This document shows, in pieces, positions 58-7,585 of a DNA stretch of 9,285 nt (position 1 is its first letter; every line of letters begins with the position of its first letter). The notes under the pieces are model-generated. The model searched no databases. It had not been told where the DNA came from and saw only the letters and a program-made list of their open reading frames with translations. The translations under genes were made by a program, and so were the position numbers. Source of the stretch: an uncultured archaeon (lineage in GTDB: Archaea > Asgardarchaeota > Thorarchaeia > Thorarchaeales > CAZPUN01); NCBI GenBank assembly GCA_964589775.1, contig CAZPUN010000053.1:1-9285 (forward strand). The letters are read 5' to 3'.

Positions 58-452
58 GATTTTGTCTATTATTGCGTAATATCAACTACAGTTATCTGAT
101 AATCGCGGAAAAATACTATTTAGTTTTATATTTGGTATAAAAGCGAATAATTTCAAAAATATGGAATAAAGTGGTATTTGCGGGCATAATAGGGTTTCTG
201 GTTATAAAATATTAGTTATCAATTCTTTCGATCTGTGATTCATGCGGGTTCATTTTCGTCATAATATGCATATCGCGCAAAAATATGAAAAAAGGGTGAA
301 GAACACAAAAATAGAGATGGAAAAAATTAATTATCCCATAATATAATTTGAAGGAAACAATTAATGAGTTGAGCGATCAACAATGGATATGATGTTCATA
401 GGGTTTCATTATGGTTTGTTATGGAGGATCGAATTTGCGAAAATTAACACCA

Positions 453-555
453 TGGTTTAACGACCGAAGCGAGCATATTTGTTATACGAATTTCAAGGAC
501 ATATCGCCTGCCAGTATGAAAATTGGTTTAACGACCGAAGCGAGCATATTTGTTA
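453..555. repeat. Two identical 32-bp direct repeats (TGGTTTAACGACCGAAGCGAGCATATTTGTTA) separated by a unique 39-bp spacer; CRISPR-like mini-array geometry
   Basis: Exact copies at 453-484 and 524-555, spacer 485-523. The 71-bp period is not a multiple of 3. The repeat is directly visible; CRISPR identity is unproven (two copies, no cas genes). Confidence 0.9.
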
Positions 556-663
556 CAGATGATGTTGAATTAATGTTTGTGAGTTTTAGCTTTTATGCAT
601 AATAGTAGAGATTTTACTACCTCTGAGAGCAAGCATTATTTTTCAAAGCGGTGATGAATTGCA

Positions 664-677
664 GAAAAGTTTATTAA
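664..677 (+). promoter_or_regulatory. Archaeal BRE-TATA promoter (GAAAAG-TTTATTAA), predicted start near 697-701
   Basis: Purine-rich BRE directly followed by TTTATTAA (670-677). The expected start coincides with the beginning of the GC-richer pairable segment, about 245 nt before the next start codon. Confidence 0.55.
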
Positions 678-690
678 TGATTATACATCT

Positions 691-828
691 CTTAATGAAG
701 CTAAACATACTAAAGGGCTGAAGCGATAATCAAAGCTCCCTTATCGGGGCAATGCGAGTATAAGCGTGAAATGTCTACCGCTGGATAGTCTATACTCAGG
801 ACCCTCGCATTTCAATGCAGGAAGTCTG
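691..828 (+). mobile_element. IS200/IS605-family right-end / tnpB 3' remnant (omegaRNA-like scaffold)
   Basis: GGACCCTCGCATTTCAATGCAGGAAGTCTG (799-828) forms a bulged hairpin with a TTCA loop. It resembles archaeal IS605 right ends as I recall them (GGAACCCTCGCCCTTTAGGGCGGGGAGGAAGTCAG-like). 691-718 reads LNEAK-NILKG if one A is restored, like the TnpB C-terminal NAAxNI motif. Confidence 0.5.
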
Positions 829-904
829 TTTGGATAGCGTCTTCAATTACCGCTACAGAGGACAAAATATTGAAAAGTAGCCCGCAAGGATCGCGGATTG
901 AAAT
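693..904 (+). ncRNA. Putative structured non-coding RNA, family unassigned
   Basis: No long ORF and an upstream promoter. Pairings: GCTCC(735-739)/GGGGC(746-750), CGATAA(724-729)/TTATCG(741-746), AATGCGAG(751-758)/CTCGCATT(804-811), GAGTATA(756-762)/TATACTC(791-797), AGCG(763-766)/CGCT(779-782), 693-710 imperfectly with 824-849, GCTAC(852-856)/GTAGC(877-881), CCGC(882-885)/GCGG(893-896). Confidence 0.55.
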
Positions 905-943
905 AAAGAAATAAAGAAAGAAGTGAAACAATAGGTGAATGCG

Positions 944-1549
944 ATGCGAGTAGATGATCTACGAGCTCTTTATAATCATAGGAAGAGGGTAATTATACTT
1001 TTGATAATTATAAATGAACTCATAGATGCAGTCATTATCATTACGAGTTTGGATTTTTCGAATATGGTTAATTTCATTCGTATAATTTCGGTTGCTATGA
1101 TAACATCATTTATATCTATTATTTTGCTAAACAAATATCTAACGTACAATACAAGTCTTACTATCATTAACGACATTGAAGAAATATTCGAAGATTTCAC
1201 ATTGTTTGGCGATAAGATTTTTGCGAAATATAAGGCGGACGACAGGATCTTTCTTATCATTAAGCTTGGATTTTTCGGTTCTGCGCAATACTATTTATTT
1301 GCATTCAAGAATTTCGTAAGCACCGAGGAATCCGAAAAATATCCACGCATGAGTAAAGGAACCAGAACAGAGCTTGATGGTTTTAAGTTTTATAAAATGA
1401 CTGGAAACTTTGTGATTCCCACGCCAAATGGTAATATAGACGGCGAAGGAACCGCATTAATGTTTAATAATATTCACTTAAGAATGTCGAGAAAGTTGCC
1501 CAAGGATGCTTTGAAACTGTTAATTGAAACCATACGAAATGAGCTTTAA
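944..1549 (+). CDS. Hypothetical membrane protein: two N-terminal TM helices plus a soluble beta-rich C-terminal domain
   Basis: ORF track 935..1549. AGGTGA (933-938) looks like the SD, so ATG 944 is the preferred start. Two hydrophobic segments (VIILLIIINELIDAVIIIT; FIRIISVAMITSFISIILL). Confidence 0.85.
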   Translation: MRVDDLRALYNHRKRVIILLIIINELIDAVIIITSLDFSNMVNFIRIISVAMITSFISIILLNKYLTYNTSLTIINDIEEIFEDFTLFGDKIFAKYKADDRIFLIIKLGFFGSAQYYLFAFKNFVSTEESEKYPRMSKGTRTELDGFKFYKMTGNFVIPTPNGNIDGEGTALMFNNIHLRMSRKLPKDALKLLIETIRNEL

Positions 1550-2198: not shown

Positions 2199-2464
2199 AA
2201 AATTCTATTATATAATTAATACATGTGATTTTCGGTCGTATTACATTTTGTCATAATTTCACAGCTTTTATTTCGAATTTTCGAATCAATCAATTGATAC
2301 CTTCCCGATTTGGGCATCGTAAAAAAACATAAAAAATTTGAGTGCTATTAATCGATTTTTTCATTTTTTATTAATATGTTTATTCAAAATTCAAAAAAAT
2401 ATGTGAAATTTTTATTGGGTAGTTAATATCATATCATTTATTGGAATATTTAGGGGGGTATTAT

Positions 2465-3442
2465 ATGAAACCTGAAGAACGATATGGAAAGCTTGTACAT
2501 TCAGCTGAAAATGCTGCAAAATTGGGATTATTTGAAGAGGCATATAAACGATATTTAAAAGCGGCAGAATCTGCTATCTCGCTAAATAGAATGCAAGAAG
2601 CGTATGTTTGGTATTTTCTTGCTTCAATATATAAATGTAATAGTTCAATAGATGATGAAAAGTATTTACTGAGTAGCCTTTATAATTTATATGAGACGTA
2701 TAATAAGCATCCGGTGGATAAAGTTACGGTATATATGCTTGGGGGTGCTTTTGGAGAATTCCCGGCGAAAAGATTTGTAAATGAAGCAATTGGCTTGCTT
2801 GCTCTTAATAATGCTAAGCTTACAAATATGGGGCTTGAAGAAATTGTTGAAAACCTGGATAAAGCAACGAAAGCATTTATGGAAATAGGGAATGATTATC
2901 TGTTTTATTCTAAATATTTAAGTATCATAAACAAGCGAGTTACTGCAAATTACGCTGCATTGATCAGTGAAGCAAATAAAGCGTATCTCCTTGGAGAGTA
3001 TTATAGTGATATTGACCCTACAAAAGCAGTAGAACATTATATGATCGCATCTCGAGCGTATAGAACTGCAAGGCGAATGGATATTTATCGAGATGTAATC
3101 AAATTAATTCAAGGTGTTCGAGTAACGAAAAAATGCTGGATTTGTGGAAGAGAAATTCAGGGCGAAAAGCACTTTGTATATTTAGATGCGAAGCTTGGTC
3201 CATATTTTGAAAAACTAATTGAGAAAAATCAAGATAAGCATTCGATTCATGGTAATAAAATCGTTGTATGTAATGTATGCTATTCTGCAATCGATAATAT
3301 TGTACAAGAGGAGCAAAGAAAATTACGTCAATTAATAGACCGATTACTCCAATTGGAACGTACTGTCTATTATATGAAGAAGGTACTTGATGCCATTCAA
3401 GTTGGTGGAACGGCTCGAAATGCATTTGGGGGTGGGTACTAA
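2465..3442 (+). CDS. TPR/alpha-solenoid-like protein with a C-terminal 4-Cys zinc site (CWIC...CNVC) and a coiled-coil tail
   Basis: SD AGGGGGG before ATG 2465. TPR-like patterns (FEEAYKRYLKAAE; AYLLGEYY...PTKAVEHYMIA), two CxxC pairs about 45 aa apart, and a heptad-like tail (LRQLIDRLLQLERTV). Confidence 0.9.
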   Translation: MKPEERYGKLVHSAENAAKLGLFEEAYKRYLKAAESAISLNRMQEAYVWYFLASIYKCNSSIDDEKYLLSSLYNLYETYNKHPVDKVTVYMLGGAFGEFPAKRFVNEAIGLLALNNAKLTNMGLEEIVENLDKATKAFMEIGNDYLFYSKYLSIINKRVTANYAALISEANKAYLLGEYYSDIDPTKAVEHYMIASRAYRTARRMDIYRDVIKLIQGVRVTKKCWICGREIQGEKHFVYLDAKLGPYFEKLIEKNQDKHSIHGNKIVVCNVCYSAIDNIVQEEQRKLRQLIDRLLQLERTVYYMKKVLDAIQVGGTARNAFGGGY

Positions 3443-5223
3443 TGGTTGACATCCAGCAATTATCCTGTGCGAATTGTGGAGCTCCATTGGAGTATAAAGA
3501 GGGTATAGAATTCATACGATGTAAATATTGTGGATATCAAAATGAAATATCAACTGCCAAAGAACGTATGGATAAATTAATCGAAGAAACCAAAAAGTGG
3601 CTCGAACAATTTTATATTAGCGGCTCCTCAACTATTGATGTCGGCATGCGTGCAATGTATTTTAAGGATAAAATATTTCCAGAAATTGTAGGTGAATTTA
3701 CAGAAATTGTACGAGATCGTATAGAACTCATAGACTATCCAATTGTTGGAAGTCCAGTGTTTAATGTCATTGATTACTTGAAATCGGAAATCTCATGGAA
3801 AATCTCCGACAGTAAGGAATTTGAGGATTTCGCATTTAAATTAAAGAATCCTGAAATTGAAGGATTTGCAACAACAAAGAAAGCGAAGGTACTTCTAAAG
3901 GCTCTTGAATTCAGATGCTATCATATTCCTACAACTCTAACCATAAACTATCTTGCGAACAAAACAGATCTCGATAGTCTTAAACTACTTGTTCAAAATC
4001 TCGAACGAATTAGTAGTGAAGCGCATGAGATATACCAGTCTATCGGTGACCCTGATGGGAAAATTTACGAAATCTTTTCTGAACGTTACAGAATTGGAAA
4101 AGAATTCACTCAACTTTTAATTAATAAGATTCGAGACCGTAAGCCATTTGAGGACGAAGAAATTCAAGGATACATATCTGAAACCCAGAAACTAATCAAT
4201 ACTTTATCCGAATCTGAAAATGTTTCCGTGGTCGATAAGATTGCACTAGAACAAGGTCTAAAGTATGATATTGAGGCATACAAAGTTCATATGAGTATTG
4301 TATCACTTTATTCAATCGGTAAGCTCAATTATGATGATTTTGTTAGAAGCTTCGAATCTTACGTTCGAAATGCTTTGATCTATCCGCGAAAGACCTCAAG
4401 CTTCAAAAATGTATTCGGAATCGAACGTGCCGAGGTTCCTGAATGGTTCACCGACAGATATGACCTCAGTAAAATCTCTTGGTTCTCTATGATTTTGAAA
4501 AAGAATTATCGGCTAAAATCTATTAAGATTGCAGGTCTTGACGAGGCAAACAGACTTATTCAACAAAGGATTCGTGGGGATTATTCTATTTTCTTGTATC
4601 CGTTTTACTTGCTAAAAGTTAAGGCGATCTTGAAATCCGGATTCTTATTCTGGAAGAAAGCGAACGATTATGAATTTTATACACTTGTTGATGCAACGTT
4701 TAATCAGCTTACTAAACCATTCCTAGATCTTGACTTTGCAGTTTTTACATCTCCCGGATTCAAAAAGGCTTTGAAAACCCGTGAAGGCAGAAATGTTCAG
4801 TCTTTAATAAATCTAAGAGAAAGTTCTATTGACCCTCGACATATTGTTATACCACCGAGCGTAGATGAATTGGATGCTGAAAATCTTTATCGTTACGCCT
4901 ACATATTAAAGGAAGACGAGTATATCGCACAGAAAAAAGACGAAACACTTGGCGTGGCTTTCTCTAAGTTTTTGGCTAAGAAGTTGAAGGATCTTGGAGA
5001 CCAATTAACACAAGGCATTTTCAATATTTCAGGTTCTTTCGCTCGGAAAGGGTTTGATGCATCTGAGGTTAAAGGAGTAGTTCCAAAAGTGATTGATCTT
5101 TTATACATACCATTAATTGCAACTTCAAACAAAATAATGATTGTAGGGCGTCAATTTGGAATCGATGAAATTCCTCAACGTGCTGATGTAATAAATGCCT
5201 TTTTGAAATTTGCAAAAAAATAG
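3442..5223 (+). CDS. Large protein with an N-terminal zinc ribbon (CANCGAPL...CKYCG), helical middle and a C-terminal region with LYPFY/LYIP motifs
   Basis: 593-aa ORF. TAATG stop/start overlap with the upstream gene at 3440-3444, preceded by a G-rich SD. Confidence 0.92.
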   Translation: MVDIQQLSCANCGAPLEYKEGIEFIRCKYCGYQNEISTAKERMDKLIEETKKWLEQFYISGSSTIDVGMRAMYFKDKIFPEIVGEFTEIVRDRIELIDYPIVGSPVFNVIDYLKSEISWKISDSKEFEDFAFKLKNPEIEGFATTKKAKVLLKALEFRCYHIPTTLTINYLANKTDLDSLKLLVQNLERISSEAHEIYQSIGDPDGKIYEIFSERYRIGKEFTQLLINKIRDRKPFEDEEIQGYISETQKLINTLSESENVSVVDKIALEQGLKYDIEAYKVHMSIVSLYSIGKLNYDDFVRSFESYVRNALIYPRKTSSFKNVFGIERAEVPEWFTDRYDLSKISWFSMILKKNYRLKSIKIAGLDEANRLIQQRIRGDYSIFLYPFYLLKVKAILKSGFLFWKKANDYEFYTLVDATFNQLTKPFLDLDFAVFTSPGFKKALKTREGRNVQSLINLRESSIDPRHIVIPPSVDELDAENLYRYAYILKEDEYIAQKKDETLGVAFSKFLAKKLKDLGDQLTQGIFNISGSFARKGFDASEVKGVVPKVIDLLYIPLIATSNKIMIVGRQFGIDEIPQRADVINAFLKFAKK

Positions 5224-5737: not shown

Positions 5738-5985
5738 GATTATGTCCCCTTTAACAGTGTTAATATTAATTTCTATCTTAATTATATATAAGACTAAGTA
5801 TTCATTAGAAAACAAATTCTAATAAAAATTAAATTATTCCATAATAATCTATTAAAATTTTTATATTCTTAAAAATCAAAAAGCGTACGAATAATCGTTT
5901 TCAATAATTTTTATTGATTTTTGTATTTTTATATTGATTAGAGCCTTTTTAGTGCGTTTTATAATCAAAAATAGAAAAAATTAAA

Positions 5986-6555
5986 TTAAATCTTTAAATC
6001 TAATCCGAAACCTCGGGTTTTCTCCTTGAATATTTTTTCACCAGCCTTAATTTCGCAATCTAAGCGGTTTTCTTGAGGCGTTATTGGGCACACCCAGTTA
6101 TTATTGTACGCACAATATGGATTATATGCAAGGTTGAAATCCAAGATGTATAGATCCTTTTCTAAATGTTCGAGTTCGACATATCTGCCAGACTCGTACG
6201 TTTCAACGCCGCTTGTTGCGTCGAGGAATGGTACAAACAAGTATTCATCTTCGGGCGATTTGTACACATGTAATCGGCATTTCTTTCCATCAATTTCAAA
6301 TTCCACATATGCATATCTATAATATTCTTGTACTTGAGGAGTATTTGTAATTATGTGTACAATTTCAGGATTATCGAATTTTACGAGCCGAACAATGAAT
6401 CTGTATTTTGGATCCGGAGGATAATACTTGAGCCCCTTGAATTCTCTTTTCTGTTCCGGGGTCAGAGGCGATTGTGGATGCCGCTTGAAAAATTCATCTT
6501 TTTCCTTTCGAAATTTTTCGATTGCTTTAATGTATTCCTTTTCTTCGTCGTTCAT
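5986..6555 (-). CDS. DUF1684 family protein
   Basis: Signature segments FVPFLDATSGVETYESGRY, LDFNLAYNPYCAYN, WVCPITPQENRL, IKAGEK. SD AGGGGA upstream. Confidence 0.95.
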   Translation of the reverse strand: MNDEEKEYIKAIEKFRKEKDEFFKRHPQSPLTPEQKREFKGLKYYPPDPKYRFIVRLVKFDNPEIVHIITNTPQVQEYYRYAYVEFEIDGKKCRLHVYKSPEDEYLFVPFLDATSGVETYESGRYVELEHLEKDLYILDFNLAYNPYCAYNNNWVCPITPQENRLDCEIKAGEKIFKEKTRGFGLDLKI

Positions 6556-6712: not shown

Positions 6713-7585
6713 ATGCCCGACAAAAAAACCCGAACAAGTAAATTTGGAGCCCCAGGTAGGATTAGTCATGATTCTACACCGTTCTATTCAGGAAAGTTGT
6801 ATTCAAATATTAGGAGCGAAGAAAAGATAACATATTTTGAGAATGCAGTTCCTTCTGATGTACTTGATAAAATTTTCCTAAAGTCCAGTGAAGACATGTC
6901 TGAGTTACCGGATAATAGTGTGCATTTAATGGTAACATCGCCGCCGTATAACGTTGGAAAAGAATATGATAATGATTACTCTCTTGAGGAATATCTCGCA
7001 CTTCTAAGGCGTGTCTGGACGGAAGTCTATCGTGTTCTCGTACCTGGCGGTCGTGCGTGTATAAATATTGCGAATCTAGGTCGCAAGCCGTATATCCCAT
7101 TGCACGCATTCGTAATTAAAGACATGGTTGAAATTGGCTTTTTGATGCGCGGCGAAATCATATGGAATAAGGAATCCAGTGCGGGTTCATCTACTGCATG
7201 GGGCAGCTGGATGTCGGCGTCTAATCCCACTCTTCGTGACGTGCATGAATACATTCTTGTATTTTCAAAACAAACGTTCAAACGGCCTAAGATGGACCGA
7301 AAGAGTACGATTTCCCGAGACGAATTTCTTGAATATACCAAGAGCGTATGGAATTTTGGGACAGTATCTGCAAAGAAGATTGGGCATCCGGCACCTTTTC
7401 CTGTTGAATTACCTTATAGATGCATTCAACTCTATACATTCGAAGGCGAAGTAATTCTTGATCCATTCATGGGTAGTGGGCAAACTGCTATCGCTGCTAA
7501 AAACACTAATCGCCACTTTGTGGGATACGAAAATAATCCAAGTTATGTTGAACTGGCTAATCATAGAATTAGTGCTATTGGATAG
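6713..7585 (+). CDS. Beta-class amino-DNA methyltransferase (N6_N4_Mtase family), probably N4-cytosine
   Basis: Catalytic motif IV TSPPY precedes HPAPFP and SAM-binding motif I LDPFMGSGQT, which is the beta-class order. SPPY favours but does not prove m4C. Confidence 0.95.
   Translation: MPDKKTRTSKFGAPGRISHDSTPFYSGKLYSNIRSEEKITYFENAVPSDVLDKIFLKSSEDMSELPDNSVHLMVTSPPYNVGKEYDNDYSLEEYLALLRRVWTEVYRVLVPGGRACINIANLGRKPYIPLHAFVIKDMVEIGFLMRGEIIWNKESSAGSSTAWGSWMSASNPTLRDVHEYILVFSKQTFKRPKMDRKSTISRDEFLEYTKSVWNFGTVSAKKIGHPAPFPVELPYRCIQLYTFEGEVILDPFMGSGQTAIAAKNTNRHFVGYENNPSYVELANHRISAIG

Follow-up and report, generated by a model that had tools for sequence, protein, structure and literature searches.

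The RNA of ISDra2 TnpB overlaps the 3′ end of tnpB and ends at the right end of the element, and its guide comes from the flanking DNA; the flanking motif in this system is TTGAT. The same class of RNA can also be found without its nuclease gene. PATE-like minimal IS200/IS605 elements that encode omegaRNAs have been described as ISGst families in Geobacillus stearothermophilus (Meers et al. 2023, PMC10055086). Such an element keeps the scaffold but no gene, and any TnpB must therefore act in trans. Nuclease-dead TnpB repressors, called TldR, likewise use TnpB-type guide RNAs, which adjoin the tldR gene and target specific promoters (PMC10705468).

The window analysed here is a stretch of 9,285 nucleotides from an uncultured archaeon. 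Its positions 614–832 are very probably a decayed, non-autonomous and protein-less PATE-like derivative of an IS200/IS605 element, which was made by internal deletion and is now most likely an immobile fossil. The element and its family resemble the PATEs of G. stearothermophilus (PMC10055086) in having a left end (LE) and a right end that are both conserved, no protein-coding gene, an omegaRNA scaffold at the right end and multiple copies, and also in a conserved flanking tetranucleotide in the absence of inverted terminal repeats or a target duplication. In contrast to those elements, the family resides in an archaeal genome assembled from vent DNA, carries an archaeal BRE/TATA promoter in the LE, is orphaned in that the assembly yielded no TnpB and no TnpA, and consists of copies that are old rather than recently mobile (mean core identity of 63%). 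The parental TnpB aligns over its full length with that of ISDra2 (complex structures PDB 8bf8, 8exa and 8h1j; E 4e-33), whereas RNA sequence similarity between ISDra2 and the window scaffold is undetectable and the motif flanking the window element is TTAC. With the TldR guide RNAs the family shares a TnpB-type scaffold away from a transposing element, but the assembly contains no TnpB-family gene, and the search for targets was negative.

PATEs with an omegaRNA that depends on TnpB in trans have been described before, and no new mechanism is opened here. The present family stands out by its archaeal host and promoter, by the large number of its copies and by the fact that both enzymes are apparently absent. 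It provides a clean archaeal example of an IS200/IS605 element shrinking to a promoter and a guide-RNA gene, and indicates that many copies of an omegaRNA scaffold can persist after their nuclease is gone. In practice, it can assist in annotating omegaRNA-like repeats in archaeal metagenome-assembled genomes (MAGs), which no Rfam model covers, and in recognising the parental TnpB clade with its likely TTAC motif.

Architecture of the element

The element comprises the following parts, all on the forward strand of the window:

614–617 (+): TTAC tetranucleotide, target site of the IS200/IS605 type and putative TAM, assigned from the family context and the match to the full-length element L076
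618–664 (+): LE, an imperfect palindrome that is decayed here, with arms at 623–628 and 659–664 and an inner hairpin at 633–652; aligns with other copies in the genome and with L076
663–677 (+): BRE/TATA-like predicted promoter, AGAAAAG followed by TTTATTAA; kept in most family copies, the parent element's own LE promoter
692–717 (+): remnant, with a frameshift, of the part of tnpB that codes for the RuvC-III motif (DLNASINILKRG), from DNA alignment to intact tnpB genes
716–832 (+): core of the omegaRNA scaffold and at the same time right end of the transposon; nhmmer E 1.4e-29, aligned to the tnpB 3′ ends of eight full-length elements, supported by covariation
823–832 (+): right-end tip, AGTCTGTTTG in the window copy and AGTATGTCAG in the family and all full-length elements
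833–852 (+): nominal guide, the first ~20 nt of the flank, placed according to the established TnpB mechanism

These parts make up a complete miniature element that has both of its ends and exists in about 40 copies, and not the stand-alone remnant described in the initial annotation. The BRE-TATA motif that had been noticed there at 664–677 is present, reading GAAAAG-TTTATTAA, and is kept in most of the ~35 copies in the genome that retain a recognisable LE. In the full-length elements L061/L075 and L076, this motif likewise precedes the operon of small ORF and tnpB. The predicted promoter is the parent transposon's own and not an acquired one; it was brought next to the scaffold by internal deletion, instead of the scaffold having been placed behind a promoter as had been proposed.

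Positions 692–717 read LNEAK/NILKG across a frameshift. This trace, already noticed in the initial annotation, is a real relic of the RuvC-III motif, since it aligns at the DNA level with the DLNASINILKRG codons of intact TnpB genes. No ORF of at least 50 aa overlaps 614–832, and the ~26-nt relic alone remains of the coding capacity. With the TnpB tail as tblastn query, the family copies were the sole matches in the genome.

The LE is preceded by a TT(A/C)AC-type context in ~20 of the 24 recognisable copies of the genome. In the window copy, its pairs are broken by private substitutions at 626, 630, 637, 638 and 660, and three more (826, 830 and 831) alter the otherwise conserved right-end tip from TCAG to TTTG; a truncation at 828 is an alternative reading of this tip. 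The guide had been expected to start near 829. Alignment to the full-length elements instead puts the end of the scaffold at 832 and the nominal guide at 833, while position 829 is retained as the point where blastn homology of the flank to its paralogue begins. Terminal inverted repeats and a target-site duplication are absent, and by inspection of the 5′ and 3′ flanks of 31–39 copies the 3′ flanks repeat neither TTAC nor the 5′ flank. A reading of the element as a TIR-type MITE was rejected.

A match to another class of RNA, raised as a possibility in the initial annotation, was not obtained from Rfam for the window at gathering thresholds. At E ≤ 10, the hits were snoR128 with 20 bits versus 40 (E 3.9) and, outside the element at 877–904, CRISPR-DR9 with 16.7 versus 45.

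The repeat family in the genome

The assembly to which the window belongs comprises 2.16 Mb in 64 contigs (96.75% complete, ~35% GC) and derives from a hydrothermal-vent metagenome. A search with the 114-nt core (window 715–829) revealed about 40 copies (39–45 nhmmer hits, best E 8e-35). According to both BLAST and nhmmer, homology between the copies stops at ~829–832, just past the conserved ...GTATGTCAG tip. Most copies have a common upstream layout, in which TTAC is followed by a ~45-nt imperfect palindrome, the BRE/TATA-like motif and then one of two junctions. The short junction is found in six copies including that of the window, and a junction longer by ~70 nt in the majority. The long subfamily retains more of the homology to tnpB, which extends as far as the zinc ribbon's second CxxC. 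Pairwise identity of the cores ranges from 44 to 88% with a mean of 63%, and the copies are old and not recently mobile.

An empty insertion site was sought through the paralogue of the window flank on contig C26. The sequences upstream of the window element and upstream of the paralogue proved to be unlike each other, and thus the insertion boundaries cannot be confirmed that way. In seven of the 39 copies, the distance to a contig end is ~1.3 kb or less (C3, C25, C48, C50, C46, C53 and C10), and no sequence common to these contig ends was seen by BLAST of window 400–1000.

Full-length relatives and the parental TnpB

An exact-pattern scan of public genome contigs returned 15 chance matches and one real relative, L061 (JAGHBQ010000082.1), from a Thermoplasmata MAG. 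In L061, a TnpB gene runs into the core with its 3′ end, and the product of this gene matches the Pfam family HTH_OrfB_IS605 (E 8.9e-9), OrfB_IS605 (E 5e-6) and a Cas12f1-like TNB domain (E 1.6e-15), and has the tail ...CSRCG...CPVCG...DRDLNASINILNRG.... The L061 protein as query led to 12 more loci in DHVE2-group and Thermoplasmatota MAGs, and the relatives named from these groups include L076 (WAOD01000060.1) and L079–L087. The full core is present in seven of the 12 further loci, six of which encode an intact TnpB of ~410 aa. The L061 TnpB is itself broken (MAG AUK260; L061:4199–5020 and 4039–4245, minus strand): the N-terminal 274 aa and the zinc-ribbon tail are kept, but the RuvC-II region that should connect them is missing owing to an internal deletion or frameshift.

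The core of the full-length elements consists of the last ~31 codons of tnpB plus 14 nt, and the core model built from the window's genome recovers these elements with nhmmer E values of 1e-19 to 1e-26. Copies attached to tnpB, with homology stopping at about 828, had been suggested as a check of the initial annotation. Eight full-length loci now provide them: all end at the same ...GTATGTCAG tip and diverge thereafter, with homology ending at ~829–832. Because the core matches both the right end of these elements and their tnpB 3′ regions, a lack of similarity to IS605 sequences, which would have told against the annotation, does not apply. Its central proposal, an omegaRNA scaffold derived from IS200/IS605 that has lost tnpB and lies behind an archaeal promoter, is borne out by this match of the core to the tnpB 3′ end and right end.

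The L076 TnpB contains the RuvC D/E/D residues and is the protein that aligns full length with ISDra2 TnpB. In several full-length loci, a Y1 (HUH) tnpA is located upstream of tnpB; in L076 and L061, its place is taken by a left end, a promoter and an ORF of ~46 aa. This small ORF lies between the LE promoter and tnpB and overlaps the tnpB start (L076:2370–2500; L061:5143–5005, minus strand). The left end of L076 begins directly after TTAC (L076:2234–2237) and is identical to that of L013, a family copy from the window's genome, at 40 of 45 positions. The window left end in turn aligns with L013 over 612–685, which includes the promoter.

The DHVE2-group and Thermoplasmatota elements therefore have the same LE (TTAC, hairpin and promoter), the same omegaRNA core and the same right-end tip as the family, but carry a ~410-aa TnpB together with the ~46-aa ORF or a Y1 tnpA, whereas the window element keeps the ~26-nt relic only. 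Since core, ends, promoter and RuvC-III relic all match full-length elements, the window element is best understood as an internal-deletion derivative of an IS200/IS605 element.

Proposed origin and former mechanism

In this deletion, nearly the whole of tnpB was probably lost together with the small ORF. The LE, including hairpin and BRE/TATA promoter, thereby came to abut what was left on the other side, namely ~25 nt from the end of the RuvC-III coding region, followed by omegaRNA scaffold and right end. As long as a parent element was present in the cell, the LE promoter may have transcribed a scaffold of ~135 nt running into the flank, with the guide beginning at ~833. TnpB supplied in trans could then have used this scaffold RNA to cut the TTAC-flanked empty site, i.e., the donor joint left after excision by TnpA, and homologous recombination would have restored the copy of the mini-element. 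This course of events is modelled on the established pathway of IS200/IS605 elements and TnpB (PMC10055086). If TnpB acted in trans, each mini-element would need its own working promoter and scaffold, which would explain why both belong to the conserved unit. Once TnpA and TnpB were lost, copies could neither be excised nor restored and would decay in place, which fits the observations.

RNA structure

Five helices were set by hand on the alignments and then tested against controls (coordinates of the window, forward strand):

720–724/735–739 (+): helix P1, covariation-supported
740–745/753–758 (+): helix P2, covariation-supported
763–766/795–798 (+): helix P3a, covariation-supported
773–778/785–790 (+): helix P3b, covariation-supported
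803–810/815–822 (+): helix P4, the TTCA-loop hairpin (loop 811–814), covariation-supported, with two mismatches in the window copy and followed by AAGTCTG (822–828)

The helices span 720–822 and agree with the nested stems previously drawn over 717–821, and the bulged TTCA-loop hairpin followed by AAGTCTG is likewise found as first described. Folding of the single sequence shows nothing special, the minimum free energy of 690–850 being no better than that of shuffled sequences on either strand (z = 0.08 and -0.33), and RNAalifold on the raw MAFFT alignment returned four pairs only. On the alignment of 34 copies from the window's genome, 78% of the cells are paired versus 34–46% in controls in which the structure was slid, and the covariation score is 0.27 versus 0.10–0.16. 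With the eight full-length elements added, these values are 87.3% versus 35–47% and 0.31 versus 0.09–0.13. Comparison with slid controls flatters the structure somewhat, as the helices were set on these very sequences. In the combined set, double changes occur at 18 of the 29 pairs, and one of 500 shuffles attained that number. Compensatory changes are clear in the full-length elements, where P3a is flipped in L077, P3b is fully replaced and the closing pair of P4 has changed from U-A to C-G. In the window copy alone, seven of the 29 pairs are broken, with losses in P1, P2, P3 and P4, i.e., in four of the five helices.

Decay and present use

The family could still be in use in one of two ways, with its ~40 scaffolds either loaded by a TnpB-family effector from a virus, a plasmid or unassembled DNA or co-opted as regulatory RNAs of the host. 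Taken together these are unlikely; if true, the cell would keep a standing guide library without encoding the nuclease. The first way, active stand-alone guide RNAs that serve a TnpB- or TldR-like protein in trans for homing or transcriptional control, with 833–852 as the guide of the window copy, seems distinctly unlikely. In its favour, PATE omegaRNAs have been proposed to work with TnpB in trans (PMC10055086), and promoter and scaffold are kept together in most copies. Conservation is, moreover, over-dispersed and site-specific, as the rate variation from site to site, taken over all copies, exceeds the binomial expectation by a factor of 3.6. This is a sign of constraint at some stage, which may go back to the active parents.

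The six copies with the deletion junction of the window are informative in this respect, because the junction is common to all six and their divergence hence post-dates the loss of tnpB. Within this subfamily, substitutions are even across stems (0.110 per site) and unpaired positions (0.098), and the promoter is deleted in one sister copy. Changed pairs are still paired in 37% of cases versus 32% under random placement (P = 0.27; low power with 35 changed pair cells). Among the six, divergence is greatest in the window copy, which carries 26 substitutions over 215 nt: nine of these affect stems and three affect the right-end tip. This pattern looks like neutral decay, and at the low power available nothing in it suggests selection on the RNA. 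Both the pairing, preserved no better than at random since the loss of tnpB, and the damage to stems and tip of the window copy argue against an active guide.

Searches for partner enzymes were also negative. The TnpB profiles PF07282, PF01385 and NF040570 detected zero TnpB genes in the assembly, the Y1 TnpA profile PF01797 gave zero matches at E ≤ 1, and no TldR-like gene was found in it either. With the TnpB proteins of L061, L076 and L082, tblastn and HMMER matched the last ~35–40 residues alone, and always at family copies; across the three profile models and two tblastn queries, these tail relics are all that was found of TnpB. TnpB-like genes are present in 29 of the 40 same-order relatives searched. 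An assembly that is 96.75% complete leaves some room for an active guide, as a MAG of 64 contigs may have missed, in assembly or binning, a full-length element that is multi-copy or is borne by a plasmid or virus. The absence of a Y1 TnpA bears on present mobility and not on descent.

Targets were sought with the flanks as guides. For none of the 31 copies did the flank have a second match beside TTAC, and such matches as were obtained were AT-rich chance ones. DNA similar to the window guide occurs elsewhere only in the paralogues on C26, at C26:4620–4640 and in a CDF-like gene, with mismatches in the seed and TTAG or TTAT in place of TTAC; the search for targets of the flank advised in the initial annotation thus led to these paralogues only. 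The target in homing would be the empty donor site, which is not observable in this assembly. A present-day role as trans-acting guide, which had been suggested for the window copy, is not supported, given the lack of a TnpB-, TldR-like or Y1 TnpA gene, of a TTAC-flanked target and of visible constraint on pairing. With ~40 copies but no gene found for TnpB or a transposase, the window copy is most likely a fossil that no longer moves and is decaying, and its promoter may still be active.

The second way, exaptation by the host, is highly improbable. Here the outward-reading LE promoter or the structured RNA would serve the cell as a mobile promoter or regulatory small RNA, and ORF 935–1549, which lies co-oriented 111 nt downstream of the window copy, would be the candidate gene. 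That every family copy is intergenic and that most retain the promoter motif is consistent with such a role. However, the downstream gene is co-oriented in 21 of 35 copies and opposite in 14, which is no better than chance, the promoter has simply been lost in one copy of the subfamily, and substitution density is even across the parts of the element. Relatives close enough to test positional conservation were not found, and blastn of one long copy against 40 same-order genomes gave zero matches.

Flanking DNA and CRISPR repeats

Beyond the right end, the window contains two features outside the element:

829–868 (+): fragment resembling part of a CDF-transporter-like gene, with 89.7% identity to C26:4616–4702 and 87% to C26:5138–5175
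869–904 (+): solitary copy of the genome's CRISPR repeat, matching the array repeats at C48:46173–46356 and C54:59–316

Window 829–915 as a whole is a paralogue of C26:4616–4702, where the CDF-like gene fragment is again followed by a solitary CRISPR repeat. A CRISPR-linked module, in which promoter, scaffold, a ~37-nt spacer-like segment and the repeat 869–904 form one unit, be it a leader, a tracr-like RNA or a mini-array, is extremely improbable and already largely refuted: although a genuine CRISPR repeat of the genome lies 37–41 nt past the scaffold and a second family copy (C50) is ~150 nt from an orphan leader-plus-repeat unit, only two of 39 copies are near any repeat (~0.5 expected by chance in intergenic DNA, an estimate), segment 829–915 recurs at C26 without a scaffold, true arrays have a different leader and the scaffold is homologous to tnpB 3′ ends and not to CRISPR components.

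At both sites, a duplicate of ~40–65 nt of the CDF-like gene directly precedes the solitary repeat (window 829–915 and C26:4597–4702, with the source at C26:5113–5175), and on C26 the source gene is only ~520 nt from its duplicate. Ectopic spacer integration or a rearrangement are possible origins of this arrangement. Orphan units of a CRISPR leader and a single repeat are scattered in the genome (C40 ~13427–13522, C44 ~5856–5951 and C50 ~1208–1303) and have in common with the real array its leader of ~60 nt. Further repeats occur at C30:5359–5384 (minus strand) and C34:16210–16235, and arrays at C48:46173 to the contig end and C54:59–316.

Upstream of the element, a perfect 32-nt direct repeat occupies 453–484 and 524–555, 71 nt apart, within a doubtful ORF of 63 aa (411–602). 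It has zero other copies in the genome and is unrelated to the CRISPR repeat or the IS family. The ORFs at 935–1549, 1608–2198 and 2441–5223 of the window are without a Pfam family. Further downstream, the window encodes a DUF1684 protein at 5986–6555 (minus strand, E 9e-48) and an N6/N4 DNA methylase at 6713–7585 (plus strand, PF01555, E 5e-50).
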